A stretch of 39,147 nt of DNA from contig CAYGAE010000003.1 of the NCBI GenBank assembly GCA_964347855.1, positions 1 to 39,147 on the forward strand. The letters are read 5' to 3'. A program made the position numbers and the translations under genes. This DNA is from an uncultured Candidatus Bathyarchaeia archaeon. Lineage in GTDB: Archaea; Thermoproteota; Bathyarchaeia; Bathyarchaeales; Bathyarchaeaceae. Positions 2,904 to 35,678 of this stretch are shown in pieces. Below the pieces are notes generated by a model that was given only the letters and a program-made list of their open reading frames with translations, was not told the DNA's origin and did no database searches. Position 1 is the stretch's first letter. Every line of letters starts with the position of its first letter.

Positions 2904-3416
2904 CTAAGGGAGAATTTCCGATAGAAGACGACCCAGTTGCTTCGCGGTTTTTTCTACCTGGCTAGTTAAGCCCTCTCCGAACGTGGCGTCCTCCGGCTGT
3001 ATCGCCAGTATAGCAACCTTGGCATCTGTTGTCTTTGCAAGGAATCTGCAGAATATTTGGAGAGGCAAAGCGTGGGTTGATATGGCTGGTTGATTGGCTA
3101 TCTGATCGGGATTTATGAGTTTCGAAGAACCAGGATCAAGGTCTAATGCGGCAGCGTCGACGACTAATATGTGGGTGGGGTTGAATTCTGTTATTGGTTC
3201 TATGAAGCTCTCGGGGACGGTTTCACATTCTATCAGATAAACGCGTTTGGAGACTTTGCCATACAAGTCTTTTACGATTTTTGTGCCGACGAAATCGTCC
3301 TTTCGAAGAGGATTCCCGATCCCGGCAATGACAACTCGCTGAGCGTCAGATAGCCAGGTTTTCAAAGTGACCTCAATATTATTCGTTTCAGTTTTGGGAC
3401 TGCCCATCGTTTCCAA
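2904..3416 (-). CDS. [NiFe]-hydrogenase maturation endopeptidase (HycI/FrhD/HyaD family)
   Basis: 170-aa ORF with family hallmarks: VVIAGIGNPLRKDDFVG near the N-terminus, a mid-protein VVDAA, and STHALPL near the C-terminus. It is the last gene of the minus-strand hdr operon. Confidence 0.8.
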   Translation of the reverse strand: METMGSPKTETNNIEVTLKTWLSDAQRVVIAGIGNPLRKDDFVGTKIVKDLYGKVSKRVYLIECETVPESFIEPITEFNPTHILVVDAAALDLDPGSSKLINPDQIANQPAISTHALPLQIFCRFLAKTTDAKVAILAIQPEDATFGEGLTSQVEKTAKQLGRLLSEILP

Positions 3417-3463
3417 CTTTGGTGACGCTTTTGAATATGTATTCTCCAGCGCGATCTCTCTGA

Positions 3464-4339
3464 TTAGATGAGTTTCAAAACCTTGGATGCATCGACTCTA
3501 AGTTGGCTCAAGGCTAGTTCGTCGGGGTTGAAGCCCATTGCCAATCCTAGGAGTTGCGTGTAGTGAAGTACTGGAATGCCGAAGGTTTCGTTGAAGGTTC
3601 GTTCTATTCTGGGTTGATTGATGTCAAACATCATGTGACAGTAAGGACACACAGTGATCAAAGCTTGGGCCCCAACACTCCTGATATGGCCAAGTTTTTC
3701 TTTAGCCAACCGGAGGGGAATTTGGTCGTTTACGCCGACTATGGGTCCGCCGCAGCACTCAGGTTCATCTATGTAGTCCAAGTATTTCGCTCCAGTTGCC
3801 TCAATTAGGGTTTTGAGAACCTTAGGATTTTCTGGGTCGTCAATGCCTACTTCTTTCGCAGGACGAACGACGTGACATCCAGTATGCTGCGCCACCTGGA
3901 GCTGATTAAGTGGCTTCTGAACGGCGTCTTTGATTTTTTCGAAGCCGATGTCTGTTGAGAGCACGTGAATGAGGTGTTTGATCTTTACTGTTCCTTTAAA
4001 CTCCATGCCGATTTCCTTCAAGTAGTCGTTGACTTTCTCCCTGAGTTTCTTGTCTTCTTTGAGTTCTTTGTTGACGTGGTTTAGGATGCCGAAACAGCCG
4101 TTGCACAGAGTCAGGATGTCTAAGTTCTGTTGCTCCGCTAAACAGAGGTTTCGTGCCGCCAAGGTGAGCATCATGTCGTGATTTACTGGATCCAATGGAA
4201 ATCCACAGCAGTTGAACTCTGGCATCTCCACCAATTCTACGCCAAGTTTATCGAGAACTTTTCTAGCGGAAATCTCGTAACTAGCGATTCTATACGGAGT
4301 AACGCATCCTAGAAAAAATAGGTACTTTAACTCTGGCAT
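3464..4339 (-). CDS. hdrB: Heterodisulfide reductase subunit B (two CCG domains)
   Basis: 291 aa with two CCG-type cysteine motifs (PEFNCCGFPL...LCNGC; EPECCGGPI...VCPYC). It sits 3 nt downstream of hdrC. Confidence 0.92.
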   Translation of the reverse strand: MPELKYLFFLGCVTPYRIASYEISARKVLDKLGVELVEMPEFNCCGFPLDPVNHDMMLTLAARNLCLAEQQNLDILTLCNGCFGILNHVNKELKEDKKLREKVNDYLKEIGMEFKGTVKIKHLIHVLSTDIGFEKIKDAVQKPLNQLQVAQHTGCHVVRPAKEVGIDDPENPKVLKTLIEATGAKYLDYIDEPECCGGPIVGVNDQIPLRLAKEKLGHIRSVGAQALITVCPYCHMMFDINQPRIERTFNETFGIPVLHYTQLLGLAMGFNPDELALSQLRVDASKVLKLI

Positions 4340-4342
4340 TTT

Positions 4343-4894
4343 TTAGGTCTTCTCCTTCTCAAGCGTCTTCGAAAAACCGGTAACGTCGAAAAGTTTGGTG
4401 ATGCTTTCTAAGTTGGCCTTTGGCAGAGAGGGCAATCCTGTCTCTTGCCTTTTTCTCAGCCGCATGTTTGGAATCGTGTAGGCATAGCCTGTTTTCCGGA
4501 TGTTAGAAGCTAACTCCTTGTACACGGCAGGCATGTGGCTCCTTTCTACAGTTAAGTTTCGAAGCGCCCGTACAATGCTGGCGATTCCCACATCTTGCGG
4601 GCAATGGTCGATACACGTAAAGCAGGTAGAACAGAGCCAGATGACATCGTTGGAAAGGAGTCTGTCTTTCAGGCCTAGTTGCGTCATTCGAATGAGTTTT
4701 CTGGGTCGGTAGAAATCATCAAACCGCGCGATTGGGCAGTCGGCTGTGCAAGTTCCGCATTGGAAGCATAACGCGATCTTTTCGGCTCCGGGAAACTTGC
4801 TTATATCGTATTTGAAGCGTGGATCCATTTCGCTTGATTTGACCATCGTTTTTTTAGTTGCCTCTGCTTGTGGCTTTTTCTTTGTTTCAGCCAT
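4343..4894 (-). CDS. hdrC: Heterodisulfide reductase subunit C (2x[4Fe-4S] ferredoxin-like)
   Basis: 183 aa with CFQCGTCTADCP and CSTCFTCIDHCP motifs. Its start overlaps the mvhD stop by 8 nt. Confidence 0.9.
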   Translation of the reverse strand: MAETKKKPQAEATKKTMVKSSEMDPRFKYDISKFPGAEKIALCFQCGTCTADCPIARFDDFYRPRKLIRMTQLGLKDRLLSNDVIWLCSTCFTCIDHCPQDVGIASIVRALRNLTVERSHMPAVYKELASNIRKTGYAYTIPNMRLRKRQETGLPSLPKANLESITKLFDVTGFSKTLEKEKT

Positions 4895-5321
4895 TGCTTG
4901 TTCCTCCAGCCCTTAGTGGGCTCGGTCCGAGTTTCTTTATTTCCTTCGTCATGTCCTTAATAATGGTTGCGAATCTCTCTCCTTCAGACGCCGAGACCCA
5001 CTCCAGTCGTAAACGCTCAGGTTTTAGACCTAAATGTTCCAAGACCTTCTTCAACATTAAAACTCTATGTTGTGCTTTGTAATTTCCAGAGAGGTAGTGA
5101 CAGTCGCCAGAGTGGCAGCCAGCGATGAGAACTCCGTCTGCTCCGCTTCGGAAGGCTTCGAGGATGAAAACTGGGTCAACTCTTCCGCTACACATCACCC
5201 TCACGATTCTAAGGGTTGGAGGATATTGGATTCGGCTAACACCTGCTAGGTCGGCACCGGCATAGGAGCACCAGTTGCAAAGGAAACCCACAATTTTTGG
5301 TTCAAATCCAGGTTTAGTCAT
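4887..5321 (-). CDS. mvhD: MvhD-type [2Fe-2S] adaptor protein (methyl-viologen-reducing hydrogenase delta subunit family), stand-alone
   Basis: 144 aa: FLCNWCSYAGADLAGVSRIQYPPTLRIVRVMCSGRVDP...GADGVLIAGCHSGDCHY. Overlaps the hdrA stop by 8 nt. Confidence 0.9.
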   Translation of the reverse strand: MTKPGFEPKIVGFLCNWCSYAGADLAGVSRIQYPPTLRIVRVMCSGRVDPVFILEAFRSGADGVLIAGCHSGDCHYLSGNYKAQHRVLMLKKVLEHLGLKPERLRLEWVSASEGERFATIIKDMTKEIKKLGPSPLRAGGTSNG

Positions 5322-8300
5322 ATTTTCCTTCCTCCATCAACGCGGCCCGAACTTGGGCAAGAATCTGGTCGTCAGTGAAGTGAAGCATGGATATGGCCTT
5401 AGCAGGGCAAGTGGAGCCACAGACGCCACAACCTTTACATAGAGCCTCGATAACGTGTGCCCTCGACTTTCCATTCATCTCTTCCATCTTGATGGCGCCA
5501 TACTCGCAAACGGGCTCGCAGAATCCGCATCCACTACAGAAGTCTTCGTTAACTCTGGCCACTGCTCCTTCTACTTCCAATACTTTCTTGGACAAAATCG
5601 TGATTGCTCGCGCCGCAGCTGCGGATGCTTGTGAAATGCTCTCTTCGATTGATTTCGGCCAGTGAGCCAACCCACAAAGGAATATGCCATCCGTTGCGAA
5701 GTCAACGGGACGGAGCTTCATGTGTGCTTCCAAGAAGAATCCGTCTTGGTTGAGTGGAACTTTCAGCATTTTTGCTATGTGATCGTTGTCTTGATTTGGA
5801 ATGGTGGCTACGCTCAGCGCCAAAAGGTCCGCCTCAATTGTCAGCCACATCTTGACGACTGGCTCCCAGACCACCATTTTGAGCTTGCCATCCTCTTGAA
5901 TAACCTTCGGCTTGTTTTCATCGTCATAGCGTATGAATAAGACTCCCTTACTTGCAGCCTCACGATAGTAATCCTCTATGAACCCGTATGTTCTCATGTC
6001 TTTGTACAGGACGTAGACGTCTGTTTCAGGGCTTAGCTCCTTAATCTTTAATGCATTTTTTACGGCTTGAGAACAGCATATTCGCGAGCAGTAGTGACGC
6101 TCTTCATTCCTAGAACCAACACATTGAATCATTGCCACAGTCTTAGCGCTAAACTGCCCATTAGCCAGCTTCTCTTCTAATGCACGCTGAGTCAAAACCG
6201 TTTTGTCGACACCATAGAGATACTCTGTCGGCTCATACTCCATGGCTCCAGCGGCAACTATCACAATGCCATGGTTTATCTCCTTTCTTTCTCCACCACA
6301 ACTAAGGGTCGTCTTGAAGTTTCCAACATATCCCTCAACATCGGAGATTTCAGAATTTAGATAAACATGAATTTTCTCGTTCCCATCGACTTCCTTTACG
6401 ATCGATTTCAGCTTTTCTTGCGGGGCCTCAGATCCAAGAAGATAATGTATATGGCGCAGGTGGCCTCCCAGTTCCTTCTCCTTCTCCACCAAATGGACCT
6501 CGAAGCCTTGTTTCGCCAATTCTAAGGCTGCAGTCATTCCTGACAAGCCGCCTCCGATCACTAGACCCGTGGGCGTAACATCTATCACCGGATTCTTGAG
6601 AGGCTTCAACAAGCGGGCTTTGGCGACAATGGATCTGACAAGATCCTTCGCTTTTTCAGTCGCTTCTTCAGGTTCATGCATGTGAACCCAGCTACATTGG
6701 TCACGAATGTTTGCCATCTCAAAGAGGTAAACGTTAAGCCCGGCTTTCCGGATGGTTTCTCTTAAAAGCGGTTCATGAGTTCTTGGAGTGCACGACGCCA
6801 CAACCACGCGGTTAAGGTTTTGTTCCTCTATTGTTTCCCTTATCCTCTTCTGAGCGTCTTCTGAGCACGTGTACAAATTATGCTCTGCGCAAACAACATT
6901 TGGCAACGTTTTAACGTACTCGACGACCTCTGGCACATCGACGACTCCCCCAATATTTATGCCGCAGTGGCAAACAAAAACTCCAATGCGGGGCTCCTCA
7001 TCGGATACGTCTCTCTCTGGTGGATACTCTTTTGCGGTTGTGAGCGTCCCTCTCTCCGACGAAATCAAGCTAGCCGCTTTTGCCGCGGCCCCACTCGCCT
7101 GCGCCACGCTCTCAGGAATGTCTTTGGGAGAAGAAAATGCTCCGCAAACGTATATTCCGGGCTTGGATGTCTCTAGCGGGGAGAACGTTTCAGAGCGACA
7201 GAAGTTGTATCTATTTAGTTTAATGTTCAGCGTTTTGGCCAATTCCTGAGCATGTTTGGGTGGCCTCATCCCAACCGATAGCACTACGAGATTGAATTCT
7301 TCGATCTTAAGGTTCCCATCTTCAACATATCTCAATAAGAGGTTTTGCGATTCCGGAATCTCTTCTATTCGAGGTACTCGAGACCTAACGAAAGTCACTC
7401 CGTATTCTTCTTCTGCTCTATTATAGTAAGCATCAAACTCCTTCCCATAGGCACGCACATCCATAAAGAAAATGGTGCATTGCAGGGTGGGATTGTGTTC
7501 CTTGGCTATGATCGCCTCTTTGATGGCATACATGCAACAAGCTGAAGAGCAGTAATTATTTCCAAGCTTAGCGTCACGCGAACCCACACATTGAATGAAT
7601 GCTATCTTCCGTGGAACCTTACCATCAGAGGGACGTAAGACCAATCCACCATAAGGTCCTGAAGCACTTAGAATACGCTCAAATTCAATGCTAGACACCA
7701 CATTTGAATACTGTCCATAGCCGTACTCCGTTTTGAGTTTTGGATCAAACTCTTCGAAACCTGGTGCCAGTATAATGGATCCAACGTGCAATACGGTTTC
7801 CCTTTCTTTTTCGTCATATTTGACCGCACCTGCCTTACAGATTTCTTGGCAGGTGCCACACCCGATGCATTTTTCTTTGTCAATGGCATAAACTAAGGGA
7901 ACCGCTTGCGGATACTTAACGTAGATCGCAGTTCTTTCGCCTAGGCCTTCATTGAATTCATCTATCGCTTCAACAGGGCATTTTCGAGCGCATAAACCGC
8001 AACCCGTGCACTTCTCTTCATCAATATACCTAGGTTTCCTTAGGCATGTAACTTGGAAGTGCCCTTCTTCACCTTCGACACTCTTTATTTCTGCGCCCAT
8101 AATTAGTTCAATGTTATGGTGCCTTCCAGCCGTGACCAGTTTCGGCGCTAGAATGCACATTGCACAATCATTGGTCGGAAAGGTTTTGTCGAGTTGGGTC
8201 ATGGTGCCGCCTATACTGGTTGATTCATCCAGCAGATACACTTTGAATCCTGAGTCAGCGAGATCGAGTGACGATTGTATTCCAGCGATTCCGCCGCCCA

Positions 8301-8334
8301 CTACGAGTACGGCGCCTACCTTGTCTTTCATCAT
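5314..8334 (-). CDS. hdrA: Tandem (double-module) HdrA-like flavoprotein
   Basis: 1006 aa. Residues 1-~425 are an FAD domain (VVGGGIAGIQSSLDLADSG, QLDKTFPTNDC, FIQCVGSRD, CSSACC) with an inserted 2x[4Fe-4S] ferredoxin (CTGCGLCARKCP, CIGCGTCQEIC). Residues ~448-1006 are an HdrA N-terminal Cys domain (RIGVFVCHCGINIGG), a second FAD domain (VIGGGLSGMTAALELAKQG, IQCVGSRN, CSRICC) without the insert, and a C-terminal ferredoxin (CSGCGFCEPVC, CKGCGVCGSTCP) ending in the HFTDDQILAQV tail. Confidence 0.9.
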   Translation of the reverse strand: MMKDKVGAVLVVGGGIAGIQSSLDLADSGFKVYLLDESTSIGGTMTQLDKTFPTNDCAMCILAPKLVTAGRHHNIELIMGAEIKSVEGEEGHFQVTCLRKPRYIDEEKCTGCGLCARKCPVEAIDEFNEGLGERTAIYVKYPQAVPLVYAIDKEKCIGCGTCQEICKAGAVKYDEKERETVLHVGSIILAPGFEEFDPKLKTEYGYGQYSNVVSSIEFERILSASGPYGGLVLRPSDGKVPRKIAFIQCVGSRDAKLGNNYCSSACCMYAIKEAIIAKEHNPTLQCTIFFMDVRAYGKEFDAYYNRAEEEYGVTFVRSRVPRIEEIPESQNLLLRYVEDGNLKIEEFNLVVLSVGMRPPKHAQELAKTLNIKLNRYNFCRSETFSPLETSKPGIYVCGAFSSPKDIPESVAQASGAAAKAASLISSERGTLTTAKEYPPERDVSDEEPRIGVFVCHCGINIGGVVDVPEVVEYVKTLPNVVCAEHNLYTCSEDAQKRIRETIEEQNLNRVVVASCTPRTHEPLLRETIRKAGLNVYLFEMANIRDQCSWVHMHEPEEATEKAKDLVRSIVAKARLLKPLKNPVIDVTPTGLVIGGGLSGMTAALELAKQGFEVHLVEKEKELGGHLRHIHYLLGSEAPQEKLKSIVKEVDGNEKIHVYLNSEISDVEGYVGNFKTTLSCGGERKEINHGIVIVAAGAMEYEPTEYLYGVDKTVLTQRALEEKLANGQFSAKTVAMIQCVGSRNEERHYCSRICCSQAVKNALKIKELSPETDVYVLYKDMRTYGFIEDYYREAASKGVLFIRYDDENKPKVIQEDGKLKMVVWEPVVKMWLTIEADLLALSVATIPNQDNDHIAKMLKVPLNQDGFFLEAHMKLRPVDFATDGIFLCGLAHWPKSIEESISQASAAAARAITILSKKVLEVEGAVARVNEDFCSGCGFCEPVCEYGAIKMEEMNGKSRAHVIEALCKGCGVCGSTCPAKAISMLHFTDDQILAQVRAALMEEGKYD

Positions 8335-9104
8335 GTTACCTCCAGTGCGATGTATAGGGGGTCCTCCCCTTCCATTCTATCCAGGGTAACTAGCCCTCGC
8401 TGCTTCAAGATCACCATGTGGCGCAACACGATTTTCGGGTCCAAGCGCAAATGTTTGGCTAAACCTTCAACGGACATTGGCTTATTCTTCACAAGAAGAT
8501 GAATTCTGCTTCGTACGTACTCTGCATCGATACTCTCATCCATCAATTCGTCAAACTCCTTTTGTTCCACTTTTTCACCGTACACGTTTTCTTCTTCGAC
8601 TAGCCTCTTCTCTCTGCCCACCAGCGTTCGCAGTCTAGAATCTCCCGCCACTGCTTTGGCTGCCATAAGGCTGGCCAACAATTTTTTGTCTCGATTTCCT
8701 CCGGCCAAAGGAGACGGCCCTAGCGCCGTCACGTGATTTCTAAAATCGTTAACGATGTGTGCGAAGCGTTCAATTTCGGACGCATAAGCCCAGTCTAACC
8801 CAAGGCGCCCTGGTTCAAGACCAGTTCGCGAAATGAGTTTCTTTAGCATCGCAATTTTCCGTTCTGCCTGAAGGTTTCCTTCAACGTAGTGACAATCGGG
8901 TGGGTGACAGCCTATTACCAAAACCCCGTCTGCCCCCTTGGCAAAAGTTTCTAGCACGATAACTGGATCGATTCTCCCAACACACATTACTCGTACTATG
9001 TGTATTTTGGGGTGACCAGGTATGGTGTCAGTACCTGCAATGCCGATATCTGTAGGCAGACTCCAGTTACATACAAAACCAATGATTTTAGGTCTAAACA
9101 TCAT
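8331..9104 (-). CDS. MvhD-like domain fused to a C-terminal winged-helix-like domain
   Basis: 257 aa. The N-terminal ~140 aa align with MvhD (IIGFVCNWSLPTDIGIAG...IHIVRVMCVGRIDP...GADGVLVIGCHPPDCHY), but the CNWC motif is CNWS here. The C-terminal ~60 aa (MSVEGLAKHLRLDPKIVLRHMVILKQRGLVTLDRMEGEDPLYIAL) have a wHTH pattern. ATGA overlaps on both sides. Confidence 0.8.
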   Translation of the reverse strand: MMFRPKIIGFVCNWSLPTDIGIAGTDTIPGHPKIHIVRVMCVGRIDPVIVLETFAKGADGVLVIGCHPPDCHYVEGNLQAERKIAMLKKLISRTGLEPGRLGLDWAYASEIERFAHIVNDFRNHVTALGPSPLAGGNRDKKLLASLMAAKAVAGDSRLRTLVGREKRLVEEENVYGEKVEQKEFDELMDESIDAEYVRSRIHLLVKNKPMSVEGLAKHLRLDPKIVLRHMVILKQRGLVTLDRMEGEDPLYIALEVT

Positions 9105-16478: not shown

Positions 16479-16521
16479 TTTTGTTCTTCACTAAGAGATT
16501 GTCGTAAGTTGCGTGAATCAC

Positions 16522-21345: not shown

Positions 21346-21364
21346 AGAGGAGCGCGAAATCAGA

Positions 21365-27164: not shown

Positions 27165-28478
27165 CTATCCCCACACAAGGGTAGAACAGGCCACCTCTGC
27201 AGCTTTGGCTGCGGCCGCACTGGCTTGCGTAACGGATTCAGAAATATCCTTGGGCGCTTGACAATATCCACAAACAAAGACTCCTTCCACTTTTGTCTCA
27301 ACAGACATAAGCAATGGGTCTTTGGTTTTGAAGAAACCATATTCATTCAATTCTAAACCAAGAATTTTTCCCAAAACCTCATTGTCATCTCTCGGAACTA
27401 GAGCCGGACAAAGCACAACCAAATCTGCACGCAATTCTTCCATTTTCCCTTTTGTGATATCTTCGTATCGAACAAAAAGATCCTTTGTCGCTGGATCTTC
27501 TATGACTGCAGAGACGCGTCCATTAACGTATTTGACACCCCATTGGTCTCTGGCTCTAGTGACGAACTCTTGGAACCGTTTCCCAAACACTCTTAAATCA
27601 ATATACAAAATGTAAACTTCACATTGAGGTTCGTGCTCTCGGACTAAGATCGCCTCTTTTGTGGCGTACATGCAACAGACGCTGGAGCAGTATGGGAACC
27701 CCTTCTGTTGAGTTCTTGAGCCAACGCATTGGGCAAAAACTATCTTGCGAGGATGTTTATTATCTGAAGGCCTCAAAAGTTCTCCACGAGTCGGCCCAGA
27801 AGCGTTAATGAGCCTTTCAAATTCCAGCGATAAAAGAACATTCTTGTATCGTTTATAACCGTACTCACTTATCGACATCGGATCGTAAAGTTCTAAGCCT
27901 GTAGCCAATATTATACTTGAAACACTAAACGTCATTCTCTTGGGTTTTTGATCGAAGTTGATTGCGTGGGCCTGACAAAATTTTTCGCACACTCGACATA
28001 CTCCTTTCTGAAAGAAGAGGCAATTGTCCTTGTCTATTATGGCTATACGGGGCACTGCCTGTGGAAAAGGCATGTAGACGGCTTTCCGCATTCCCACGCC
28101 CATATCGAATTCGCTTGGCACCTTAACTGGGCATTTTTCTGAGCACGCACCGCAACCAGTACATTTGTCAGCGTCAATAAACCTTGGGTTTTTCAAAACC
28201 TCAACCTTGAAGTTTCCAGCAGAGCCCCTAACTTCCTTAACTTCTGAGCATGTGAGCAGCTTGATGTTTGGGTGACGGAAGCACTCAATCATTTTTGGCG
28301 CGAGTATGCATATAGAACAATCCATTGTTGGGAATGTCTTATCAAGCTGAGCCATTCGCCCCCCGATGCCTGGGGATTTCTCGACGAGATATACTTTGAG
28401 CCCTCTGTCAGCGAGGTCCAAAGACGCTTGTATTCCAGCTATGCCTCCGCCAACTACAAGTACAGCATTGTTGCCCAA
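27165..28478 (-). CDS. hdrA: HdrA-like FAD + inserted-ferredoxin module only (QmoA-like size)
   Basis: 437 aa: VVGGGIAGIQASLDLADRG, QLDKTFPTMDC, CTGCGACSEKCP, CLFFQKGVCRVCEKFC, FAQCVGSR, CSSVCC. Colinear with residues 1-~430 of the 1006-aa protein. Its stop is 4 nt before the next ATG. Confidence 0.88.
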   Translation of the reverse strand: MGNNAVLVVGGGIAGIQASLDLADRGLKVYLVEKSPGIGGRMAQLDKTFPTMDCSICILAPKMIECFRHPNIKLLTCSEVKEVRGSAGNFKVEVLKNPRFIDADKCTGCGACSEKCPVKVPSEFDMGVGMRKAVYMPFPQAVPRIAIIDKDNCLFFQKGVCRVCEKFCQAHAINFDQKPKRMTFSVSSIILATGLELYDPMSISEYGYKRYKNVLLSLEFERLINASGPTRGELLRPSDNKHPRKIVFAQCVGSRTQQKGFPYCSSVCCMYATKEAILVREHEPQCEVYILYIDLRVFGKRFQEFVTRARDQWGVKYVNGRVSAVIEDPATKDLFVRYEDITKGKMEELRADLVVLCPALVPRDDNEVLGKILGLELNEYGFFKTKDPLLMSVETKVEGVFVCGYCQAPKDISESVTQASAAAAKAAEVACSTLVWG

Positions 28479-28627: not shown

Positions 28628-29572
28628 TCATGCTTTGTAGTAGTATGGCCTTTTAATGTAGCCGAACGCTTCACTAGCCGCAATTATGGCCTGGCCAACA
28701 GCCGTTCCAACTTGCTTCACAGGACCGTTAGTTACATCGCCAGCAGCGAAAACTCCGCCAACGCTTGTTCTCTGGCGGTTATCCACGATAATGTAGCCAG
28801 CCTTATCCACTTCTATTCCCGCTTCTTTGGCGATCTGGCTGTTTGGCGCCTCACTGATTTGAACGAATACACCGTCAACCTTCATCTCTCTGGTTTCGCC
28901 TGTTCTGTTGTTTACTAAGACGACGCCTTTTACTTTGGTGTCTCCCTTTACTTCTTTGAGCTCTGTGTTCCACATAATTTCCACCCCTTGTGCAACCAGG
29001 TCCTTCACAAGGGCCTCTTCTGCCCTGAGTTGGTCCTTCCGGTGAGCCAGCTTGACCTTGGAAGCTATATTTGCGAGGTATCTAGCAGAAATTACTGCCG
29101 AATTGCCACCGCCCACCACTAGTACGTTTCCTTCTTTGAAGAAGGCTCCGTCGCATAATGCGCAGTAACTGACTCCCTTTCCTCGAAATTCGGTCTCACC
29201 TGGCACTTCAAGAGTTCCATAGTGGCTTCCGGAGGCAATGATTACTGCTGAGGCTTTGCGAACTGCTCTATTCGTCTTAAGAGTTTTCTTTTCACCTCTA
29301 AGATCCAGTTCAACAACCTTTTCTAATTCATGAATCGTCGCCCCAGCGTTTCTACATTGTTTCGCCATTTTGTCAGCTAAGTTATGGCCACTAATTGCTT
29401 CAAAGCCGGGGTAATTTTCGACCAACGGAGTGTCAACGATTGCCCCACCAACCACTTTCTCGTCCAGAACTAGGGTTTTGAGTCCACTGCGAGCACCGTA
29501 CAAGCCTGCGGTTAAACCTGCTGGACCTGCGCCTATAACGACCAAATCCCACTGTTCCACTTTTGTCACCAT
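28628..29572 (-). CDS. Thioredoxin-reductase-like (low-Mr TrxB family) flavoprotein
   Basis: 314 aa: DLVVIGAGPAGLTAGLYGARSG, redox CxxC (SYCALCDGAFF), VVGGGNSAV, HRKDQLRA (NADPH-type motif), GVFAAGDV. Confidence 0.85.
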   Translation of the reverse strand: MVTKVEQWDLVVIGAGPAGLTAGLYGARSGLKTLVLDEKVVGGAIVDTPLVENYPGFEAISGHNLADKMAKQCRNAGATIHELEKVVELDLRGEKKTLKTNRAVRKASAVIIASGSHYGTLEVPGETEFRGKGVSYCALCDGAFFKEGNVLVVGGGNSAVISARYLANIASKVKLAHRKDQLRAEEALVKDLVAQGVEIMWNTELKEVKGDTKVKGVVLVNNRTGETREMKVDGVFVQISEAPNSQIAKEAGIEVDKAGYIIVDNRQRTSVGGVFAAGDVTNGPVKQVGTAVGQAIIAASEAFGYIKRPYYYKA

Positions 29573-29596
29573 ACCGCACGAAAATTCTAGTAACGA

Positions 29597-31978
29597 TTAA
29601 TCTTCCACTTCCGCTTTCTGTTGAAGCTTTTCTTTGATGCTTTCTCGAATATCCCTTGAGATAGCGCCCATTCTTGAAATTCTTTCGTTGAACATTTCGA
29701 ACGTGTTGGTCACTTTGCCGTATTCGGGAAGCGTCGTAGAGAAGGACATTAGTCGGAGGGGTTTGACGCCATACGCCCCCAGCTCCTTCTTCATCTGGAT
29801 AACATGTTCCCTCAAGGCTTCCTCCGTGAAGACACCACCATGGGCCTCCAGTAGAACAACGCCATCAGCCCCAGAGGCGAAGGCATGCAACACATGTTTC
29901 AAACCGATTCGTCCTGTCGTGGGGACGCTGACTATTTCGACGTTGGGAGAATAAGATACTCGCGACTGCCCAGCCAAATCCGCAGCGCCGTAGGCTATCT
30001 CCTTTTCTAGGAAGGCGATGATCTTTGGTGATTTGCCGCCTTGGCTCACTGCTTCAATTTGAGCCATCAACTGGGCTTCGGTTGAATTCCGTAGGTCAAT
30101 CGCTTCTCTGGGACACCTTGGCACACAGATGCCACATCCAATACACACCATCGGGTTGATCGTCATACCAGTCGGCGATTCCTCCACCGCTGCCACGGGG
30201 CACACTTCAACGCAGACCCTGGACTTGTCACATCTATCTGGATCGATGTAAGCCACTTCTGGCGAAACGGAGATTTCGCCTTTACCAAGGAAGGTGGCGA
30301 CTCTGGAAGCGGTTGACATGGCTTCCAAGGTCGTTTCTCTGACATCTTTGGGACTCAAGGCGCAGCCAGCAACGAAAACCCCCTCTCGCTGACTATCCAC
30401 CGGCTTGAGTTTGTAATGCCTTTCCAAAAGAAAACCGTCCGAACCAGTCTGAATACCCAACTTCTTAGCCAGTTCTGGAGTGTCTGGTTTGGATATTATT
30501 CCAGTAGTGAGCACAACCAGGTCAAATTTTCCTTCCACTTTAGTACCGAGAAGAGTGTCTTCTGCCTTCACCAGTATTTCATCGTTTTTCAATGGCACAA
30601 CCTCCGCCACGCGGCCCCTGACAAATCGCACGTTGTGATCTTGGGCGGTGAGATAGAATTCTTCGTACCCTTTTCCATCAGCCCTTATATCGGTGTAGAA
30701 GATCCATGGCTCGGCGTCAGGAACGATCTTTTGGAGTAACATAGCCTGCTTAATCGCAGCCATACAGCCTATCTTACAGCAATGCTTTACTCCTGGTTCC
30801 TTGTTCATCATTCGGCTGCCCACGCAGAGTATGAAGGCTACTCGCTTAGCCACTTTTTCATTAGAGGGCTTGCGCATCTCACGACCTAAGAGTCTCTCCA
30901 ATTGCAGGTTCGTTACAATGTCTGGGTGTAGACCGAAGGCATACTCTTCAAAGGATGTGGGGTCAACTTGCTCAAATCCAGTGCAAGCAACGATTGCGCC
31001 CACGTCGAGCTCAATAGTTTCTTCCTTCTGATCGAAATCAATGGCGTTACCTTTACAGAATTTCTCGCAAACCCTGCAAACTCCCTTAGTGAAGAATAAG
31101 CAGTTGTCTTTATCGATCAGGTATGTTCTCGGAACTGCCTGCTGAAAGGGTATGTGAATGGCTTTTCGCTTGTATAAGCTAGCTTCGAATTCGCTTGGCA
31201 CCTTGGCAGGGCAAACCTTCTCACACTCGCCACAGCTTATACATTTTGAGGCGTCCACAAATCGTGGGTGCTGCTTAACTAAGACTCTATAGTTGCCAGG
31301 AGACCCCTCGACGGCAACGGGCTCTGCCATGCTAATGATCTTTATGTGTGGGTGTTGACCAGCATCCACCATTCTCGGCGTCAGGATGCACTGGGAGCAG
31401 TCAAGGGTGGGAAAGGTTTTACTAAGCTGGGCCATATGTCCGCCTATGCTTGGACCCTTCTCCACTAAGTATACCAGATGACCTTTGTCCGCCAACTCAA
31501 GGGAAGCCATGATACCGGAGACCCCGCCCCCAATCACAAGGACATCCCTATTCACTGGTAGGCTCTTCGTCTCCAGCGGCTCGAGATAGTGAGCCCGAGC
31601 CACCATGCCGCGAATAAGATCTGTTGCCTTGGATGTTGCAGCCTCTACGTCGTCGTGCGCCCAGCTGACCTGTTCTCTGATGTTGGCCATGTCTAGAAAG
31701 TAGGGGTTCAAGCCGGCCGATTTCACAGTTCGCCTGAAGGTGTCTAGGTGCATGCGGGGTGAACATGAAGCCACTATTATTCTGTTAAGACCATGCTCCT
31801 TGATTCCATGGGTTATCATCTCTTGTCCCGGGTCGCTGCACACGTATTCGTAGGTTTCAGCAATCTTCACTCCTTGGAGTTTCATGACTTCTTCTTTGAC
31901 TTTCTCTACGTCCACGGTGTCGCTTATGTTTCCCCCGCAGTGGCAGATGTATACGCCTATCTTGATTTCTTCTGACAT
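29597..31978 (-). CDS. hdrA: HdrA-like flavoprotein with a C-terminal MvhD-homologous domain that lacks all cluster cysteines
   Basis: MSEEIKIGVYICHCGGNISD, VIGGGVSGIMASLELADKG, QLSKTFPTLDC, CISCGECEKVCP, CLFFTKGVCRVCEKFC, ILCVGSR, C-terminal ferredoxin (CDKSRVCVEVCP, CIGCGICVPRCP). The tail then reads IIAFLEKEIAYGAADLAGQSRVSYSPNVEIVSVPTTGRIG...GADGVVLLEAHGGVF. Start chosen at ATG 31978 (GGAGA upstream); the ORF track extends to 32038. Confidence 0.85.
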   Translation of the reverse strand: MSEEIKIGVYICHCGGNISDTVDVEKVKEEVMKLQGVKIAETYEYVCSDPGQEMITHGIKEHGLNRIIVASCSPRMHLDTFRRTVKSAGLNPYFLDMANIREQVSWAHDDVEAATSKATDLIRGMVARAHYLEPLETKSLPVNRDVLVIGGGVSGIMASLELADKGHLVYLVEKGPSIGGHMAQLSKTFPTLDCSQCILTPRMVDAGQHPHIKIISMAEPVAVEGSPGNYRVLVKQHPRFVDASKCISCGECEKVCPAKVPSEFEASLYKRKAIHIPFQQAVPRTYLIDKDNCLFFTKGVCRVCEKFCKGNAIDFDQKEETIELDVGAIVACTGFEQVDPTSFEEYAFGLHPDIVTNLQLERLLGREMRKPSNEKVAKRVAFILCVGSRMMNKEPGVKHCCKIGCMAAIKQAMLLQKIVPDAEPWIFYTDIRADGKGYEEFYLTAQDHNVRFVRGRVAEVVPLKNDEILVKAEDTLLGTKVEGKFDLVVLTTGIISKPDTPELAKKLGIQTGSDGFLLERHYKLKPVDSQREGVFVAGCALSPKDVRETTLEAMSTASRVATFLGKGEISVSPEVAYIDPDRCDKSRVCVEVCPVAAVEESPTGMTINPMVCIGCGICVPRCPREAIDLRNSTEAQLMAQIEAVSQGGKSPKIIAFLEKEIAYGAADLAGQSRVSYSPNVEIVSVPTTGRIGLKHVLHAFASGADGVVLLEAHGGVFTEEALREHVIQMKKELGAYGVKPLRLMSFSTTLPEYGKVTNTFEMFNERISRMGAISRDIRESIKEKLQQKAEVED

Positions 31979-32201
31979 CTTTATGTCTCCGGTTGTGATG
32001 GTCTCGAAGTGGCTTTTAGAATTAAGCATAATCACCATTTAAACTCTTAAACATCTCGCTTAAAACCTCTAGATGTCAAAGCAGACAATCTTGACCAAGT
32101 AGAATCGTTCTCTCATGTCTTACTTTTAGCACAAGAGCCAAAAGCGCGCAGATTCTCCCAGGCTTTGGTTTTTTCACTTTATTGGCAATCTCTTGATAAG
32201 G

Positions 32202-32209: not shown

Positions 32210-32281
32210 TATCCGCATCGCCTAATTACTTTCCAAACATAGCCTAACGTGCACCTTTCCACAAACGGAGGAAACACCGAA

Positions 32282-33220
32282 ATGCCCATGAAACTGCTCA
32301 AAACACAAAACGAGGACGAACTGAGGATTGAAAGGATTCTCCATGCAAAAAGGCACTCCTTGACTTTGGACAAGAATAGGTGCCCGGGCTGTGAAATCTG
32401 CATGCTAATCTGTCCAAAAGAAGCAATCGAAGTAGAAAAACTGCGGAAAAAAGATGGAGAAAAAAGTAAGCCCCCAAGCATGAACGTCGATGAGGAAAAG
32501 TGCCATTTTTGTGGTATGTGCAGTTCCATTTGCCCCTTCGGAGCTTTAGACATGAAGATTGACGGTGAAACCGTGATTCCCGTGGTTCAGAGTGAGAGCT
32601 TTCCTCAGCTTATCCGCGAGATTACAGTCAACTCAACAAAGTGTAACCTAGAATGCGTTGATTACGAAGACGCATGCCCCTTGGGACTGATAAAGGTCAG
32701 GGCGCAGATTCCGGACGCGAAAGTAGTCAAAAACGCAGAGTCAATCGCAGAAAAGGAAGACCTCCAAGTTTCTCTCGATATAGAGAAGGATTCGTGCCCG
32801 TGCTGTCGCGTATGCGAACTGAAGTTCCCAGAAGGAGCCATCCGAGTGCAAAAGATATTCAACGGCACAATAACGATAAACCCTGAAAAATGTCCCGAGG
32901 ACTGTCAGGATTGCCTTGACGTCTGCCCCATAACCGGCGCCCTATACCTCTCAGAAGACGGAAAGGTCCACGTTAACGAGTTACATTGCGTCTATTGCGG
33001 GGTATGCAAAATCGTTTGCCCCGAGGAAGGTGCCTTGAAGCTTCACAGAACTCACATACGCCACACTCCCCTCCGCTCAGGAGCCTGGAACAAAGCTCTC
33101 GAAAAACTAACCTCACCCAAGGAGATGACAAAAGAATTACGAACAAAGAGTTCACAAAGGCTTCGGGAATCTGTGGCAAAGAGGCTGCTGCCAAAGGCAG
33201 GAGGTGAAGGGGATGCCTGA
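32282..33220 (+). CDS. Polyferredoxin-like protein (up to six [4Fe-4S] motifs)
   Basis: CPGCEICMLICP, CHFCGMCSSICP, CNLECVDYEDACP, CPCCRVCELKFP, CPEDCQDCLDVCP, CVYCGVCKIVCP. GGAGG lies 10 nt upstream of ATG 32282. The stop overlaps the next hdrA start by 8 nt. Confidence 0.85.
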   Translation: MPMKLLKTQNEDELRIERILHAKRHSLTLDKNRCPGCEICMLICPKEAIEVEKLRKKDGEKSKPPSMNVDEEKCHFCGMCSSICPFGALDMKIDGETVIPVVQSESFPQLIREITVNSTKCNLECVDYEDACPLGLIKVRAQIPDAKVVKNAESIAEKEDLQVSLDIEKDSCPCCRVCELKFPEGAIRVQKIFNGTITINPEKCPEDCQDCLDVCPITGALYLSEDGKVHVNELHCVYCGVCKIVCPEEGALKLHRTHIRHTPLRSGAWNKALEKLTSPKEMTKELRTKSSQRLRESVAKRLLPKAGGEGDA

Positions 33221-35678
33221 AGACCCACGCATAGGAGTTTTCATTTGCCATTGCGGTCTCAACATCGCAGGCGTGATCGACATAGATGACCTTGAAAAAT
33301 ACGCCAAAACGTTGCCCAACGTGGTTTACACTAAACAGAACCGCTACACGTGCGCCGATCCTGGACAAGAAGAAATCAGGAAGGCGGTAAAGGAGCACAA
33401 TCTGAACCGCGTGGTTGTCGCAGCCTGTTCACCACGGTTGCATGAACCCACCTTTCGCAGAACCGTCTCCGAAGCGGGATTAAACCCGTTTTACTATGAG
33501 ATGGCCAACATAAGGGAGTTCTCGTCATGGTGTCACCCAAGCATGCCGGAGGGTGCAACAGAAAAGGCGAAGGACATCGTAAAGATGGCTGTCGCCAAGG
33601 CAAGACTGCTCCAAAGTCTCGAAACCCTCGAAGTTCCGGTGACGAATAAGGCTCTAATCCTAGGCGGCGGAATCGCTGGAATAAGTGCTGCCCTGGACCT
33701 CGCTGGCATGGGTTTCAAGGTGTATCTTGTTGAGAAGGGGGAAAGCATTGGCGGTCACATGGCACAGCTGGACAAGACCTTTCCCACGCTAGACTGTTCC
33801 ATATGTATCGAAGGACCAAAAATGGTAGACGTCTCCCGCCACCCCAACATCGAAATAATATCATACGCCGACATCTTAAGCGTAAACGGTTTCGTGGGCA
33901 ACTTCAAAGTCAAGATACGAAAAAACCCTAGATACGTCATAGCCGACAACTGCACCGGCTGTGGCGAATGCCGCGACGTCTGCCCCATAGAGTTCCCCAA
34001 CGAATGGGACATAAACATGGGCGTGAGGAAGGCAATCTCGATCCCCTTCGATCAAGCAGTTCCCCTTGTCTACACAATCAATATGGACTATTGTATAGAA
34101 TGCTACAAGTGCGTAGACGCTTGTGGCGCCCGCCAAGCCATCAACTTCGACCAAAAGCCAGACGAAATCGAACTTGAAGTTGGCACTATCATAGTGTCAA
34201 CCGGATTTGACATCTATACACCCTACGACGACAGCCGATACGGCTACGGCAGATACGACAACGTCATCACAGCGCTAGAATTCGAAAGGCTAATCTTAGC
34301 GGCCGGTCCAACCGGTGGAAAGGTTGTGCGTGCCTCTGACGGGAAGAAGCCACACACCGTAGTCTTCATCCAGTGCGTAGGCTCCAGAGACGTCAACAAA
34401 TACGAGTACTGTTCAGGCTTCTGCTGCATGTACTCACTGAAGAACGCGATATTACTCAAGGAGAAATACCGTGAAGACGTCGAAGTCTACATTCTCTACA
34501 TCGACATGAGAACCCACTTCAAAGGCTACGAAGAATTCTACAGAAGAGCCCGCGAGCTAGGAATCAACTTCATCCGGGGAAAGGCATCCAAGATTCTAGA
34601 AAACCAGACGACAAAGAATCTAATCATACGCGCAGAAGACATGGCCCTTGGGGAACCAATCGAACTAGAAGCAGACCTCGTGGTCCTAAGCACAGCAGCC
34701 ATTCCAAACAAAGACTCAGGTGACATGGCGAGAGTCCTAAATATCACGCGAGGGTCAGACGGCTTCTTTATGGAGAGCCACCCAAAGCTCAAACCCGTCG
34801 ACACCCCAGTAGACGGAATCTTCCTGGCAGGAGCCTGCCAAGGACCCAAAGACATCCCGTACAGCGTCTCCCAAGGAAGCGGAGCCGCCGCCAGAGCAGC
34901 AACCATCCTCTCTCAACCAACTTGGAAGATCGAACCCATCATCGCAGTAGTGAACCCAGATAGATGCCGAAATATAAACGCCAAATGCGGCATTTGCGCG
35001 CAGAGGTGCCCATACGGAGCCATAGAAGCCCCTGAAGGACATCCAGCTCATGTCACAACCGCTATGTGCCATGGTTGCGGAACTTGTGTCGCCGAATGCC
35101 CCGCCGACGCCATCACTCAGATGCACTTCACGGACGCCCAAATTACGGCGCAGATTCAATCCGCTTTAGAAGAAAATCCTGAGGACAAGATCCTCGCTTT
35201 CCTATGCAACTGGTGTAGTTATGCTGGCGCCGACCTTGCAGGTACGAGTCGTTTTGAGTATCCACCAACAATACGGGCAATACGAGTGATGTGCTCAGGA
35301 CGTGTGGATCGAGATTTCGTTATGGAAGGTTTTAGACGGGGAGCTGGCATGGTTCTAGTGGCTGCTTGCCACCTGCCCTACGACTGCCACTACATCTCCG
35401 GCAACGTGAGAATGAAAGCGAGGATGGAAGCGCTAGCAAAGATGTTGGAAAAACTGGGGCTAAGCTCCGAAAGGTTTAGAATAGAATATATATCGGCGGC
35501 GGAAGGAGTAAAATTCGCCGAATTGATCAGGGAAATGACTGAACAAATGGAGACCCTTGGAAAAGAAAAGATCAAAGCAGAAAACACGAAACTGGGACCG
35601 ACACTCGAAAAGATGCTCTCAAGAAAAAAGGATACAACAAGGGCTCTTAAAACCCCGAAGGCCCTTATACAACACTAA
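33213..35678 (+). CDS. hdrA: HdrA-MvhD fusion protein (full complement of canonical motifs)
   Basis: DPRIGVFICHCGLNIAG, ILGGGIAGISAALDLAGMG, QLDKTFPTLDC, CTGCGECRDVCP, CIECYKCVDAC, FIQCVGSRD, CSGFCC, CGICAQRCP, CHGCGTCVAECP, and an HFTDAQITAQI tail. The MvhD domain follows (FLCNWCSYAGADLAG...VMCSGRVD...ACHLPYDCHY). GGAGGTG lies upstream of ATG 33213. Confidence 0.9.
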   Translation: MPEDPRIGVFICHCGLNIAGVIDIDDLEKYAKTLPNVVYTKQNRYTCADPGQEEIRKAVKEHNLNRVVVAACSPRLHEPTFRRTVSEAGLNPFYYEMANIREFSSWCHPSMPEGATEKAKDIVKMAVAKARLLQSLETLEVPVTNKALILGGGIAGISAALDLAGMGFKVYLVEKGESIGGHMAQLDKTFPTLDCSICIEGPKMVDVSRHPNIEIISYADILSVNGFVGNFKVKIRKNPRYVIADNCTGCGECRDVCPIEFPNEWDINMGVRKAISIPFDQAVPLVYTINMDYCIECYKCVDACGARQAINFDQKPDEIELEVGTIIVSTGFDIYTPYDDSRYGYGRYDNVITALEFERLILAAGPTGGKVVRASDGKKPHTVVFIQCVGSRDVNKYEYCSGFCCMYSLKNAILLKEKYREDVEVYILYIDMRTHFKGYEEFYRRARELGINFIRGKASKILENQTTKNLIIRAEDMALGEPIELEADLVVLSTAAIPNKDSGDMARVLNITRGSDGFFMESHPKLKPVDTPVDGIFLAGACQGPKDIPYSVSQGSGAAARAATILSQPTWKIEPIIAVVNPDRCRNINAKCGICAQRCPYGAIEAPEGHPAHVTTAMCHGCGTCVAECPADAITQMHFTDAQITAQIQSALEENPEDKILAFLCNWCSYAGADLAGTSRFEYPPTIRAIRVMCSGRVDRDFVMEGFRRGAGMVLVAACHLPYDCHYISGNVRMKARMEALAKMLEKLGLSSERFRIEYISAAEGVKFAELIREMTEQMETLGKEKIKAENTKLGPTLEKMLSRKKDTTRALKTPKALIQH

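Follow-up and report, generated by a model that had tools for sequence, protein, structure and literature searches.

Introduction

How many electron-bifurcating machines are encoded where seven flavin modules of the heterodisulfide reductase subunit HdrA and six domains of the adaptor MvhD are found with only two HdrBC pairs? This question is raised by the window analysed here, the whole stretch of 39,147 nucleotides (nt) at positions 1 to 39,147 of contig CAYGAE010000003.1 (assembly GCA_964347855.1), which derives from an uncultured Candidatus Bathyarchaeia archaeon. An earlier interpretation, hereafter the sequence-only reading, had arranged the genes between 2,904 and 35,678 into five units, numbered i to v, and had described them as an extreme concentration of bifurcating modules, most without HdrBC and only those of unit ii resembling a characterised enzyme.

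The analysis reported here favours, with a probability of about 0.68, a different description, namely that three conserved blocks of HdrA-type bifurcation or confurcation genes, linked to H2 and NAD(P)H, lie side by side in an authentic segment of a Bathyarchaeia genome. Block A corresponds to unit i, block B to unit ii, and block C to units iv, iii, and v. The joining of the HdrA/MvhD core to differing partners, as originally proposed, is evident throughout, these partners being an Mvh hydrogenase, a GltD/NfnB-type module, NfnAB, a thioredoxin reductase (TrxR), and a polyferredoxin.

Inventory of HdrA, MvhD, and HdrBC Modules

The gene map was compiled from the list of open reading frames (ORFs) together with Pfam and NCBIfam scans, and HdrA modules were counted by tblastn with the conserved C-terminal half of the TrxR core. 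Seven TrxR-type flavin modules were located in the window, at 5626, 7081, 20104, 25736, 27207, 30305, and 34350, along with six FlpD/MvhD domains, five of which carry four or five cysteines at conserved positions whereas that of unit iv carries none, and two complete HdrBC pairs, in which HdrB possesses two five-cysteine CCG motifs and HdrC two [4Fe-4S] motifs. These counts agree with the sequence-only reading, including its observation that HdrBC pairs are fewer than HdrA cores, and its gene list was recovered at the same coordinates by the ORF map, Pfam, and NCBIfam, apart from one start codon discussed below.

All seven modules align to the solved HdrA of 5ODC (E = 3e-164 to 1.6e-218) and score 564-1093 bits on the NCBIfam HdrA2 model (NF040770); since every score falls below the equivalog cut-off of 1100, none is classed as the methanogen CoB-CoM enzyme itself. 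The modules were aligned to 5ODC HdrA, and the cysteine positions, Lys409, and Glu356 were checked. The HA4 cysteines (Cys386, 399, 403, and 404 in 5ODC numbering) are present in six of the seven modules, and unit iv has an equal number of cysteines in a shifted pattern, HCCKIGCM. Both the Cys194/Cys197 pair and the [4Fe-4S] site of the N-terminal domain (N-domain) occur in units iv and v, while in units i and iii they are divided between two halves, the cysteine pair in a half termed A1 and the N-domain site in a half termed A2. Lys409 is kept in all modules except unit iii A2 (Asn), and Glu356 in all except unit ii (Ala). For each HdrA paralogue there exists a separate, old orthologue family with at least 120 Bathyarchaeia clusters.

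Complementary HdrA Halves in Units i and iii

Two asymmetric pairs account for four of the seven modules. In unit i, a fused double HdrA of type II, 1006 residues long, is encoded at 5314..8334 on the minus strand and matches the HdrA2 model (1051 bits) and 5ODC (1.6e-218) in three stretches each. Its A1 half (residues 1 to ~430) comprises a TrxR domain with a Cys57/Cys60 pair, an inserted ferredoxin domain with two [4Fe-4S] clusters, and the HA4 cysteines; its A2 half (residues ~430-1006) comprises the N-domain cluster cysteines, a second TrxR domain, HA4 cysteines, and a C-terminal ferredoxin domain with two [4Fe-4S] clusters. This protein is represented by more than 120 Bathyarchaeia clusters at 77-100% identity, among which the motif count is conserved. 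In unit iii, the same layout is distributed over two minus-strand genes, encoding the A1 core (27165..28478; 564 bits on HdrA2 over model positions 140-559) and an A2::MvhD fusion (25022..27160). The latter has the N-domain cysteines, a C-terminal ferredoxin, and an MvhD with five cysteines, lacks Cys197 and the inserted ferredoxin, and carries Asn in place of Lys409; its 774-residue ORF begins upstream of the true start, Met63 at coordinate 27160, which was set by orthologues of 712 residues.

In both units, A1 retains the Cys194/197 pair, HA4, and the inserted ferredoxin domain but neither terminal domain; A2, conversely, retains the N-terminal cluster domain together with the C-terminal ferredoxin but neither Cys197 nor the inserted ferredoxin. 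Core identity in the matrix is 51% between the two A1 halves and 45% between the two A2 halves, whereas A1 and A2 share only 32-33%. The MvhD partner of the pair is a separate gene in unit i and a fused domain in unit iii. Because four modules make up two complementary pairs, the seven flavin modules reduce to five HdrA cores, and the notion of seven bifurcating enzymes is not supported.

By their domain layout, units i and iii are the already described "type II / BamE-like" pseudo-heterodimers. In the HdrA3-6 and HdrA12/13 proteins of anaerobic methanotrophic archaea (ANME) and in Moorella HdrA, a complementary heterodimer is formed in one chain or from two genes, and such fused or paired proteins were classified as type II HdrA in a published analysis. 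A preprint cryo-electron microscopy study describes BamE as a fused HdrA dimer in which only the N-terminal FAD bifurcates.

As a side observation, a unit iii type A1 core with a GltD/NfnB-like insertion of ~490 residues in its ferredoxin domain is encoded in the loci of close relatives (given L numbers here) L003 (8087-10789), L007 (7955-10549), L133, and L151, where nfnAB remain downstream.

The HdrA-TrxR-NfnAB Cluster of Units iv and iii

Unit iv begins with an HdrA::MvhD fusion (29597..32038, minus strand; probable start Met21 at 31978) that scores 855 bits on HdrA2, while its cysteine-free MvhD domain reaches only 84 bits on Pfam FlpD. Of 116 clusters, 92 share the absence of cysteines, noted in the sequence-only reading, and 109 share the HA4 variant HCCKIGCM. 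The next gene on the same strand (28628..29572) encodes a low-Mr NADPH thioredoxin reductase with the motifs CALC, GGGNSA, and HRKDQLR (TIGR01292, 334.8 bits against a cut-off of 343.45); all 80 orthologues compared have the CxxC motif, and GGGNSA and HRRxxxR are conserved among them. It is followed by the HdrA pair of unit iii and then, also on the minus strand, by NfnA (24193..25020; FAD/[2Fe-2S], PyrK-like; NF004862, 381 bits, above the cut-off of 220) and NfnB (22748..24196; GltA/GltD-type with two [4Fe-4S] clusters and FAD; TIGR01316, 639 bits, above the cut-off of 471.75). The nfnA gene is separated from the HdrA pair by 1 nt and is translationally coupled to it.

Orthologue loci of the TrxR gene were surveyed in metagenome contigs, 42 of which had sufficient downstream sequence. 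In 28 loci nfnA/nfnB lie within 6.5 kb, in nine hdrC/hdrB(/hdrA) are found, and in five neither, so that 37 of 42 are near nfn or hdr genes; an HdrA of the unit iv type stands directly upstream of TrxR in 12 of 36 loci. The commonest order is HdrA(Cys-less MvhD)-TrxR-NfnA-NfnB-HycI, and the order of the window, with the A1/A2 pair preceding NfnA, recurs in L099 and L162; in L162 the cluster extends into hdrC-hdrB-hycI. Because this gene order recurs and TrxR adjoins nfn or hdr in 37 of 42 loci, units iii and iv are regarded as one conserved co-directional cluster, and of the original division into five units the gene sets stand while the separation of these two does not. Orthologues of the unit iv HdrA adjoin hdrCB in other genomes, and for this reason the lack of hdrBC beside a given hdrA of the window says little; as evidence of unidentified acceptors, for which it had been taken, it is weak. 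The tight TrxR-Nfn-Hdr linkage is the most interesting lead provided by the locus.

A thioredoxin gene (WCxPC) was sought in the window and none was found. Separately, in the most distant TrxR orthologues (55-64% identity; L152, L153, L156, L158, L159, and L163), the next gene encodes a thioredoxin-like protein of ~145 residues with WCGPC or WCAPC, which replaces nfn/hdr.

These results bear directly on the alternative inherited from the sequence-only reading, according to which the window holds seven independent HdrA bifurcation sites in five separate units, forming a toolkit of alternative complexes that mostly lack HdrBC. It draws on the counts themselves, on the diversity of partner modules, and on a published analysis reporting that both TrxR domains of most type II HdrA proteins keep Lys409 and Glu356, from which two bifurcation events were suggested; the A2 half of unit i keeps both residues. 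Nevertheless, the complementary domain losses of A1 and A2 imply that the halves function as one unit, a single FAD bifurcates in BamE, units iii and iv form a single conserved cluster, and hdrCB adjoins orthologues of the supposedly orphan HdrAs elsewhere, which together render this alternative unlikely, although it fares better than those considered below.

The GltD-Linked Operon of Unit i

Unit i is read on the minus strand from 12099 to 2904, its genes overlapping or separated by at most 58 nt. Upstream of the double HdrA lie a GltD/NfnB-type NAD(P)H flavoprotein (9101..10834; Pfam Fer4_20, Pyr_redox_2, and Fer4) and a long MvhD adaptor of 257 residues (8331..9104), in which an FlpD domain with four cysteines (6.8e-40; aligned to MvhD of 5ODC) is followed by a C-terminal ArsR-type winged helix (HTH_5, 6.2e-06). 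The flavoprotein contains an N-terminal domain with two [4Fe-4S] clusters, the dinucleotide motif GGGNSA, and a C-terminal domain with two further [4Fe-4S] clusters, and scores 512.6 on NCBIfam PRK12771 against a cut-off of 516. Its residues 498-574 match HdrA2 model positions 568-643, the C-terminal ferredoxin domain of HdrA, and owing to this resemblance the arrangement "GltD-Fd + MvhD-wH" (ferredoxin-bearing flavoprotein and winged-helix adaptor) mirrors "A2-Fd + MvhD". Downstream of the double HdrA are a stand-alone MvhD with five cysteines (4887..5321; Pfam FlpD, 1.5e-58), HdrC with two [4Fe-4S] clusters (4343..4894; two CxxCxxCxxxCP motifs; TIGR03290, 123 bits against a cut-off of 160), HdrB with two complete CCG motifs and ten cysteines (3464..4339; two Pfam CCG matches; TIGR03288, 316.6 against 345), and a HycI-type [NiFe]-hydrogenase maturation protease (2904..3416; Pfam HycI; TIGR00142, 116.4 against 119.1).

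In relatives, hycI is placed after mvhGA or nfnB (L085, L162, and many TrxR loci), and in L083 and L085 the operon of unit i type extends into hdrC-hdrB-mvhG-mvhA(-hycI), of which the window retains only hycI after hdrB. Two tandem double HdrAs are present in L083 and L084. In relatives, and also in numerous bacteria and archaea, the GltD module is inserted in the A1 ferredoxin domain, a form present in L003, L007, L008, L010, L012, L026, and L077. Judged by its gene content, unit i is a split version of the HdrL/type III architecture. In two loci of relatives, aldehyde:ferredoxin oxidoreductase (AOR) genes occur 2-6 kb from a unit i type operon (L084, 16848-18946; L085, 19950-22801); that of L085 is accompanied by a poly-cluster ferredoxin of 167 residues and ThiS, loosely recalling BamBC beside BamDEF.

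The operon opens with two proteins (copy 1, 11509..12099; copy 2, 10893..11486; both minus strand), each with a GcvH-like domain (Pfam GCV_H, matches of the 1.3e-24 class; family alignment) behind an N-terminus resembling ribbon-helix-helix (RHH) proteins. The GcvH part of the original annotation holds, with the qualification that the lipoyl lysine is replaced by Trp in copy 1 and by Met in copy 2, as determined by alignment to solved GcvH and, for copy 1, confirmed by the family alignment, and that neither copy contains cysteine; the RHH part is represented only by sub-threshold Pfam matches of the N-terminal 60 residues to RHH-type families (E ~0.01-0.09). A role as lipoate carriers for HdrB, comparable to that of LbpA in the sHdr system of sulfur oxidisers, was considered and rejected because of these replacements and the lack of cysteine. 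The family is small, with 12 representative clusters at E <= 1e-30 among 1.84 billion proteins; all of its RHH-fused members lack the lipoyl lysine, and in one representative both copies are fused in tandem. The pair is conserved upstream of the GltD-Hdr operon together with a divergent gene for an AbrB/MazE-like protein with a PhoU domain, a probable regulator (12201..13256, plus strand; Pfam MazE_antitoxin and PhoU), which occupies an equal position beside two GcvH-like genes in L002, L083, and L084. The GcvH-like pair may itself consist of regulators, possibly of a new type.

The Hydrogenase-Linked Unit ii and the Polyferredoxin-Linked Unit v

Unit ii, on the plus strand, has the canonical gene order. 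It comprises an MvhG/VhuG-type hydrogenase small subunit (16513..17460; Pfam Oxidored_q6; VhuG the best match at 225 bits, below cut-off), an MvhA/VhuA-type [NiFe] large subunit with a C-terminal extension (17457..18911; VhuA the best match at 424 bits against a cut-off of 800), an HdrA::MvhD fusion of type Ia (18922..21345), HdrC (21329..21892; Pfam/NCBIfam and cysteine motifs), and HdrB with two complete CCG motifs (21889..22764; TIGR03288, 329 against 345). The large subunit displays RICGVC at residue 59 and DPCFAC at residue 451, corresponding to the RxCGxC and DPCxxC motifs of group 3c [NiFe] hydrogenases. As the TIGR03288 scores of the two HdrB proteins of the window, 317 and 329, lie below 345, specificity for CoM-S-S-CoB is not established for either.

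The HdrA of this unit aligns to 5ODC from end to end, and its N-domain is degenerate, the four conserved cysteine positions being occupied by Ser, Cys, Trp, and Ser. In addition, Ala takes the place of Glu356; the remaining clusters are retained. Both changes are shared by the 86%-identical orthologue in L004 and by 112 of 120 family clusters. Despite the canonical gene order, these losses make it the least canonical core of the window.

Unit v, also on the plus strand, consists of a polyferredoxin with 23 cysteines (32249..33220; Pfam Fer4 families; FwdF the best match at 161 bits, VhuB weak), whose start may be the ATG at 32282 and which is preceded by a TATA-like TTTATAAT at ~32203, and an HdrA2-like HdrA::MvhD protein (33204..35678). 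The latter scores 1093.1 bits on HdrA2 against the cut-off of 1100, shares 59% core identity with 5ODC HdrA, and contains every cluster cysteine bar Cys103; by these features it is the most canonical HdrA copy of the window.

Density and Arrangement of HdrA Modules in Relatives

Density was compared in 47 loci longer than 15 kb that were obtained through one HdrA query and thus form a biased sample. A Thermoplasmata contig (L074) carries seven HdrA modules in 20 kb, the Bathyarchaeia contig L085 carries six in ~13 kb, and four modules are found in 19 of the 47 loci. HdrA paralogues in excess of HdrBC have been reported in ANME-1, and nine hdr loci in Desulfobacterium autotrophicum. The density of the window is the high end of a known pattern, and its description as an extreme concentration was overstated. 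One further dense locus, L051 (DATLAV010000190.1), is labelled 'Patescibacteria group bacterium' and has five HdrA modules and two mvhGA pairs at 53-70% identity to proteins of the window; it is probably a mis-binned archaeal contig.

The survey of related contigs proposed in the sequence-only reading confirmed conservation, with the iv+iii order in L099 and L162 and unit i type operons in L083 and L085, while the three blocks of the window lie apart or in other orders in relatives. The window arose by the joining of three conserved blocks through lineage-specific rearrangements.

This arrangement also informs the idea that several HdrA cores form one super-complex performing serial (double) bifurcation, gene clustering then reflecting physical association. 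Such an idea has been published for expanded Hdr clusters, and the class II benzoyl-CoA reductase complex BCRII has two coupled bifurcation modules; in relatives, four to six HdrA modules occur in long operons read in one direction, that of L085 comprising twelve genes on a single strand and those of L083 and L084 two tandem double HdrAs each, and in the window the unit iii pair directly precedes NfnAB, itself a bifurcating enzyme. Against this, the modules of the window are distributed over at least four transcription units on both strands with unrelated genes between them, and the reshuffling of the arrangement among close relatives fits exchangeable modules better than a fixed super-complex, which is accordingly judged improbable, somewhat more so than a set of independent units.

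Integrity of the Window and Identity of the Modules

A chimeric assembly joining paralogous hdrA regions of different genomes was considered as an alternative. Short-read contigs from the same population do terminate within hdrA, mvhA, or polyferredoxin genes, and the stretches 18405-19604, 26374-27261, and 32650-39147 have no near-identical second contig. On the other hand, three separate contigs reproduce the remainder: JABAOF010005778.1 (GCA_012974965.1) equals window 1-18405 at 99.4-100% identity, JABAOC010029498.1 (GCA_012975005.1) equals 19604-26374 at 99.35%, and JABAOC010011870.1 equals 27261-32650 at 99.39%. Because these matches reach 99.35-100%, every inter-unit junction is considered independently assembled, and the stretches without a second contig are spanned by the gene order of L004, L099, and L162. 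The GC content is even (0.42-0.51), and core identity among the seven HdrA modules is only 32-51%, so that they are old paralogues too divergent to have misled an assembler as repeats. The best database relatives of the proteins carry Bathyarchaeota or Bathyarchaeia names, and the archaeal operon rpoA-L30e-nusA lies in the right flank, beside the Hdr region. The window represents genuine, non-chimeric chromosomal DNA of a Bathyarchaeia archaeon; the chimera, named at the outset as a ground for doubt, is very improbable.

The weakest alternative, that most of these proteins are ordinary pyridine-nucleotide-disulfide oxidoreductases, arises from the generic Pyr_redox_2 and FAD-binding families returned by Pfam alone and is excluded by the 5ODC alignments and HdrA2 scores given above, which are full-length matches, and by the HdrA-specific cysteine motifs found in every module (the motifs concerned being FPTxDCxxC, QCVGSR...YCSxxCC, and the N-domain CxCG), a check with profile models that had been set beforehand and that upheld the HdrA identity.

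Neighbouring Genes and Other Features

Relative to the near-identical contig L002, the window has four unaligned stretches (824-972, 13627-13680, 14244-14304, and 16350-16408), which are probably strain-level indels, the first falling within an ORF of 924 residues with TPR motifs (31-2805). Between units i and ii, positions 13651-15151 (plus strand) encode an anion exporter of the TauE/SafE family as well as a small membrane protein whose VIT1-like match is weak; TauE also occurs near the PhoU/GcvH genes in L083, a relative at 87% identity (523-1278). The ~1.36 kb upstream of mvhG (15152-16512; GC ~0.42) has no convincing ORF or Rfam match and holds only a minus-strand ORF of 104 residues assigned to no family. 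At the right end, an ORF for the largest subunit of RNA polymerase (36418-39147, minus strand) runs off the window; as Rpb1 domains 2, 3, and 4 and the whole of domain 5 share one reading frame, it seems to encode RpoA in one piece and not as two genes, A' and A''. No match was obtained when the entire window was scanned against Rfam, and exact-sequence look-ups of the double HdrA and TrxR gave none either, owing to start-codon or strain differences.

Comparison with Known Systems

HdrA types I, Ia, and II, which occur in the window, and type III, which occurs in relatives, have already been described, Bathyarchaeota included, and the parts of the locus belong to enzyme architectures known from other anaerobes. 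The expectation that only unit ii would resemble a characterised enzyme did not hold, since unit v matches the Methanosarcina hdrA2-polyferredoxin pair, counterparts of unit i exist in BamDEF, HdrL, and fused Moorella HdrA, and the HdrA of unit ii is degenerate. Unit ii shares with the MvhAGD-HdrABC complex of hydrogenotrophic methanogens (5ODC) the full set of subunits, complete CCG motifs, HdrC clusters, and Ni-Fe motifs, and an HdrA alignable from end to end, but differs in that MvhD is fused to HdrA, three of the four N-domain cysteines and Glu356 are lost, and all NCBIfam scores are below the equivalog cut-offs. Unit v shares with HdrA2B2C2 and the co-transcribed polyferredoxin of Methanosarcina acetivorans an HdrA::MvhD fusion encoded with a polyferredoxin and without hdrBC, and differs in that its polyferredoxin is FwdF-like.

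Unit i invites several comparisons. With BamDEF of the class II benzoyl-CoA reductase of Geobacter metallireducens and with the MetFV-HdrABC-MvhD systems of Moorella and Sporomusa, it shares a fused HdrA dimer of ~1000 residues; with BamE, as described in the preprint, an N-terminal TrxR domain with the lysine and Cys57/60 (Cys59/62 in BamE); and with BamDEF a long winged helix-turn-helix (wHTH) MvhD adaptor and a CCG-type partner. According to the preprint, BamF is an MvhD extended by more than 100 residues; it contains a wHTH and docks the NADH module. The differences are that a GltD/NfnB-type module stands in the place of BamBC (W-AOR) and BamGHI, that two MvhD adaptors are present, that HdrB and HdrC are separate, and that the second TrxR domain keeps Lys where BamE has Gln. 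Pfam scans of the window revealed no AOR or NuoEF-like gene, and a search of solved structures for fused HdrA (BamE, Moorella HdrA) returned only methanogen HdrA entries. By analogy, unit i is grouped with the BamDEF core in its probable mode of action but is not counted as a benzoyl-CoA reductase.

HdrL of Desulfobacterium autotrophicum and the type III HdrA of ANME-1 and Bathyarchaeota resemble unit i in combining HdrA with a GltD NAD(P)H module and mvhD, whereas in unit i a gene of its own encodes GltD, which has a C-terminal ferredoxin and a dedicated long MvhD adaptor, and its dinucleotide motif is GxGxxA (GGGNSA) as against the GxGxxG reported for type III. The FlxABCD-HdrABC complex of Desulfovibrio is a proposed NADH-dependent bifurcating disulfide reductase. 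It resembles unit i in that HdrABC is fed by a flavo-FeS module that oxidises NAD(P)H together with an MvhD-type adaptor, but the module of unit i is of the NfnB/GltD type and unrelated to FlxA, and its HdrA is a fused dimer.

Unit iii resembles the tandem HdrA5/6 and 12/13 of ANME and the QmoA/QmoB of sulfate reducers in having adjacent hdrA-like genes with complementary domains, the second with MvhD, but it is associated with NfnAB and TrxR, where the others have FdhAB/FrhB or QmoC/AprAB. In ANME fused HdrA3/4 the halves are in reverse order, unit iii having the Cys197-bearing half first. No QmoC or Apr gene was detected by Pfam scans of the window, its hdrC genes matching the qmoC model over the FeS part only. 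NfnA and NfnB score above the NCBIfam cut-offs, as expected of the NfnAB transhydrogenase, but are coupled to an HdrA pair and conserved beside TrxR and an HdrA with a cluster-less MvhD.

Four features do not appear to have been described in the literature searched. They are the conserved association of TrxR and NfnAB with an HdrA whose MvhD is cluster-less, the split HdrL-like arrangement of unit i and its two MvhD adaptors, the clade of hydrogenase-linked HdrA proteins that have lost the N-domain cluster, and the RHH-like/GcvH-like pair. The locus is rich, not unprecedented, and no new kind of system is revealed by it.

Proposed Electron Paths

From domain composition, cofactor ligands, conservation, and synteny, candidate electron paths, partners, and substrates can be proposed for each block. 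Block A would be a split HdrL/BamDEF-like machine in which the GltD/NfnB-type flavoprotein oxidises NAD(P)H and passes electrons from its flavin through its own HdrA-like C-terminal ferredoxin and the winged-helix MvhD to the FAD of A1. There, the high-potential electron would travel through HA4, HdrC, and HdrB to a disulfide, and the low-potential electron through the A2 N-domain cluster and the inserted ferredoxin of A1 to ferredoxin, while the short MvhD may be a docking site for an Mvh hydrogenase, which is encoded directly downstream in relatives. In block B, electrons would flow from H2 through MvhAG, MvhD, and the HdrA FAD to HdrCB and a disulfide, the ferredoxin branch being doubtful. 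Block C is envisaged as a hub linking NADPH, NADH, ferredoxin, and thiols, in which two HdrA cores would be connected through NfnAB and TrxR to NADPH, NADH, ferredoxin, and a protein disulfide; the unit iv HdrA would have a structural, cluster-less MvhD, and the HdrA2-like protein of unit v, with its polyferredoxin wire, is transcribed divergently. Polyferredoxins wire low-potential electrons in methanogen Hdr super-complexes, and the FwdF-like polyferredoxin of unit v may likewise wire such electrons to a partner enzyme.

Several considerations weigh against this scheme. Lys409 and Glu356 are both retained in the A2 half of unit i, in contrast to the Gln at the non-bifurcating FAD site of BamE, so that unit i may contain a second active flavin. 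Bifurcation in unit ii is questionable because the N-domain cluster ligands and Glu356 are missing. In unit iv, the MvhD is predicted to be unable to bind a cluster, and the HA4 motif is rearranged. The 149-nt gap between the TrxR and A1 genes, which has no T-run, may hold an internal promoter, and NfnAB and TrxR could act as free-standing, merely co-regulated enzymes, adjacency being no proof of association. The likeness to BamE and BamF was drawn from the text of a preprint rather than from sequence or structure alignment. Finally, the Hdr disulfide substrate of non-methanogenic Bathyarchaeia has been called unclear in the literature.

With regard to this substrate, a tentative suggestion, to which only a small chance is given, is that in these Bathyarchaeia the part of the recyclable 'heterodisulfide' is played by thioredoxin or by some other substrate of TrxR. 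HdrA/HdrBC would then reduce the disulfide while driving electrons from H2 or NAD(P)H to ferredoxin, TrxR would re-oxidise the dithiol, or reduce the disulfide, against NADP(H), and NfnAB would equilibrate NADPH with NADH and ferredoxin. Such a cycle is thermodynamically feasible on standard midpoint potentials, and it is compatible with the linkage of TrxR to nfnAB (28/42), to hdrCB(A) (9/42), and to the HdrA with the cluster-less MvhD that precedes it (12/36). If true, it would mean that H2, NADPH, NADH, and ferredoxin are exchanged around a protein disulfide, and it would explain the use of Mvh-Hdr by non-methanogens.

Significance for Bathyarchaeia

Bathyarchaeia are among the most abundant archaea of anoxic sediments. 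How they generate the low-potential ferredoxin for their Wood-Ljungdahl pathway hinges on the substrate of their Hdr enzymes. Within a single organism, the locus combines a canonical HdrA of the HdrA2 type, one that is linked to a hydrogenase and has no N-domain cluster, one whose MvhD is purely structural, and asymmetric dimers both fused and split, and it indicates which partner genes are stably linked to these forms of HdrA. Concrete, expressible targets for biochemistry are offered by the conserved linkage of HdrA, TrxR, and NfnAB and by unit i, with its split HdrL/BamDEF-like organisation and its two MvhD adaptors.

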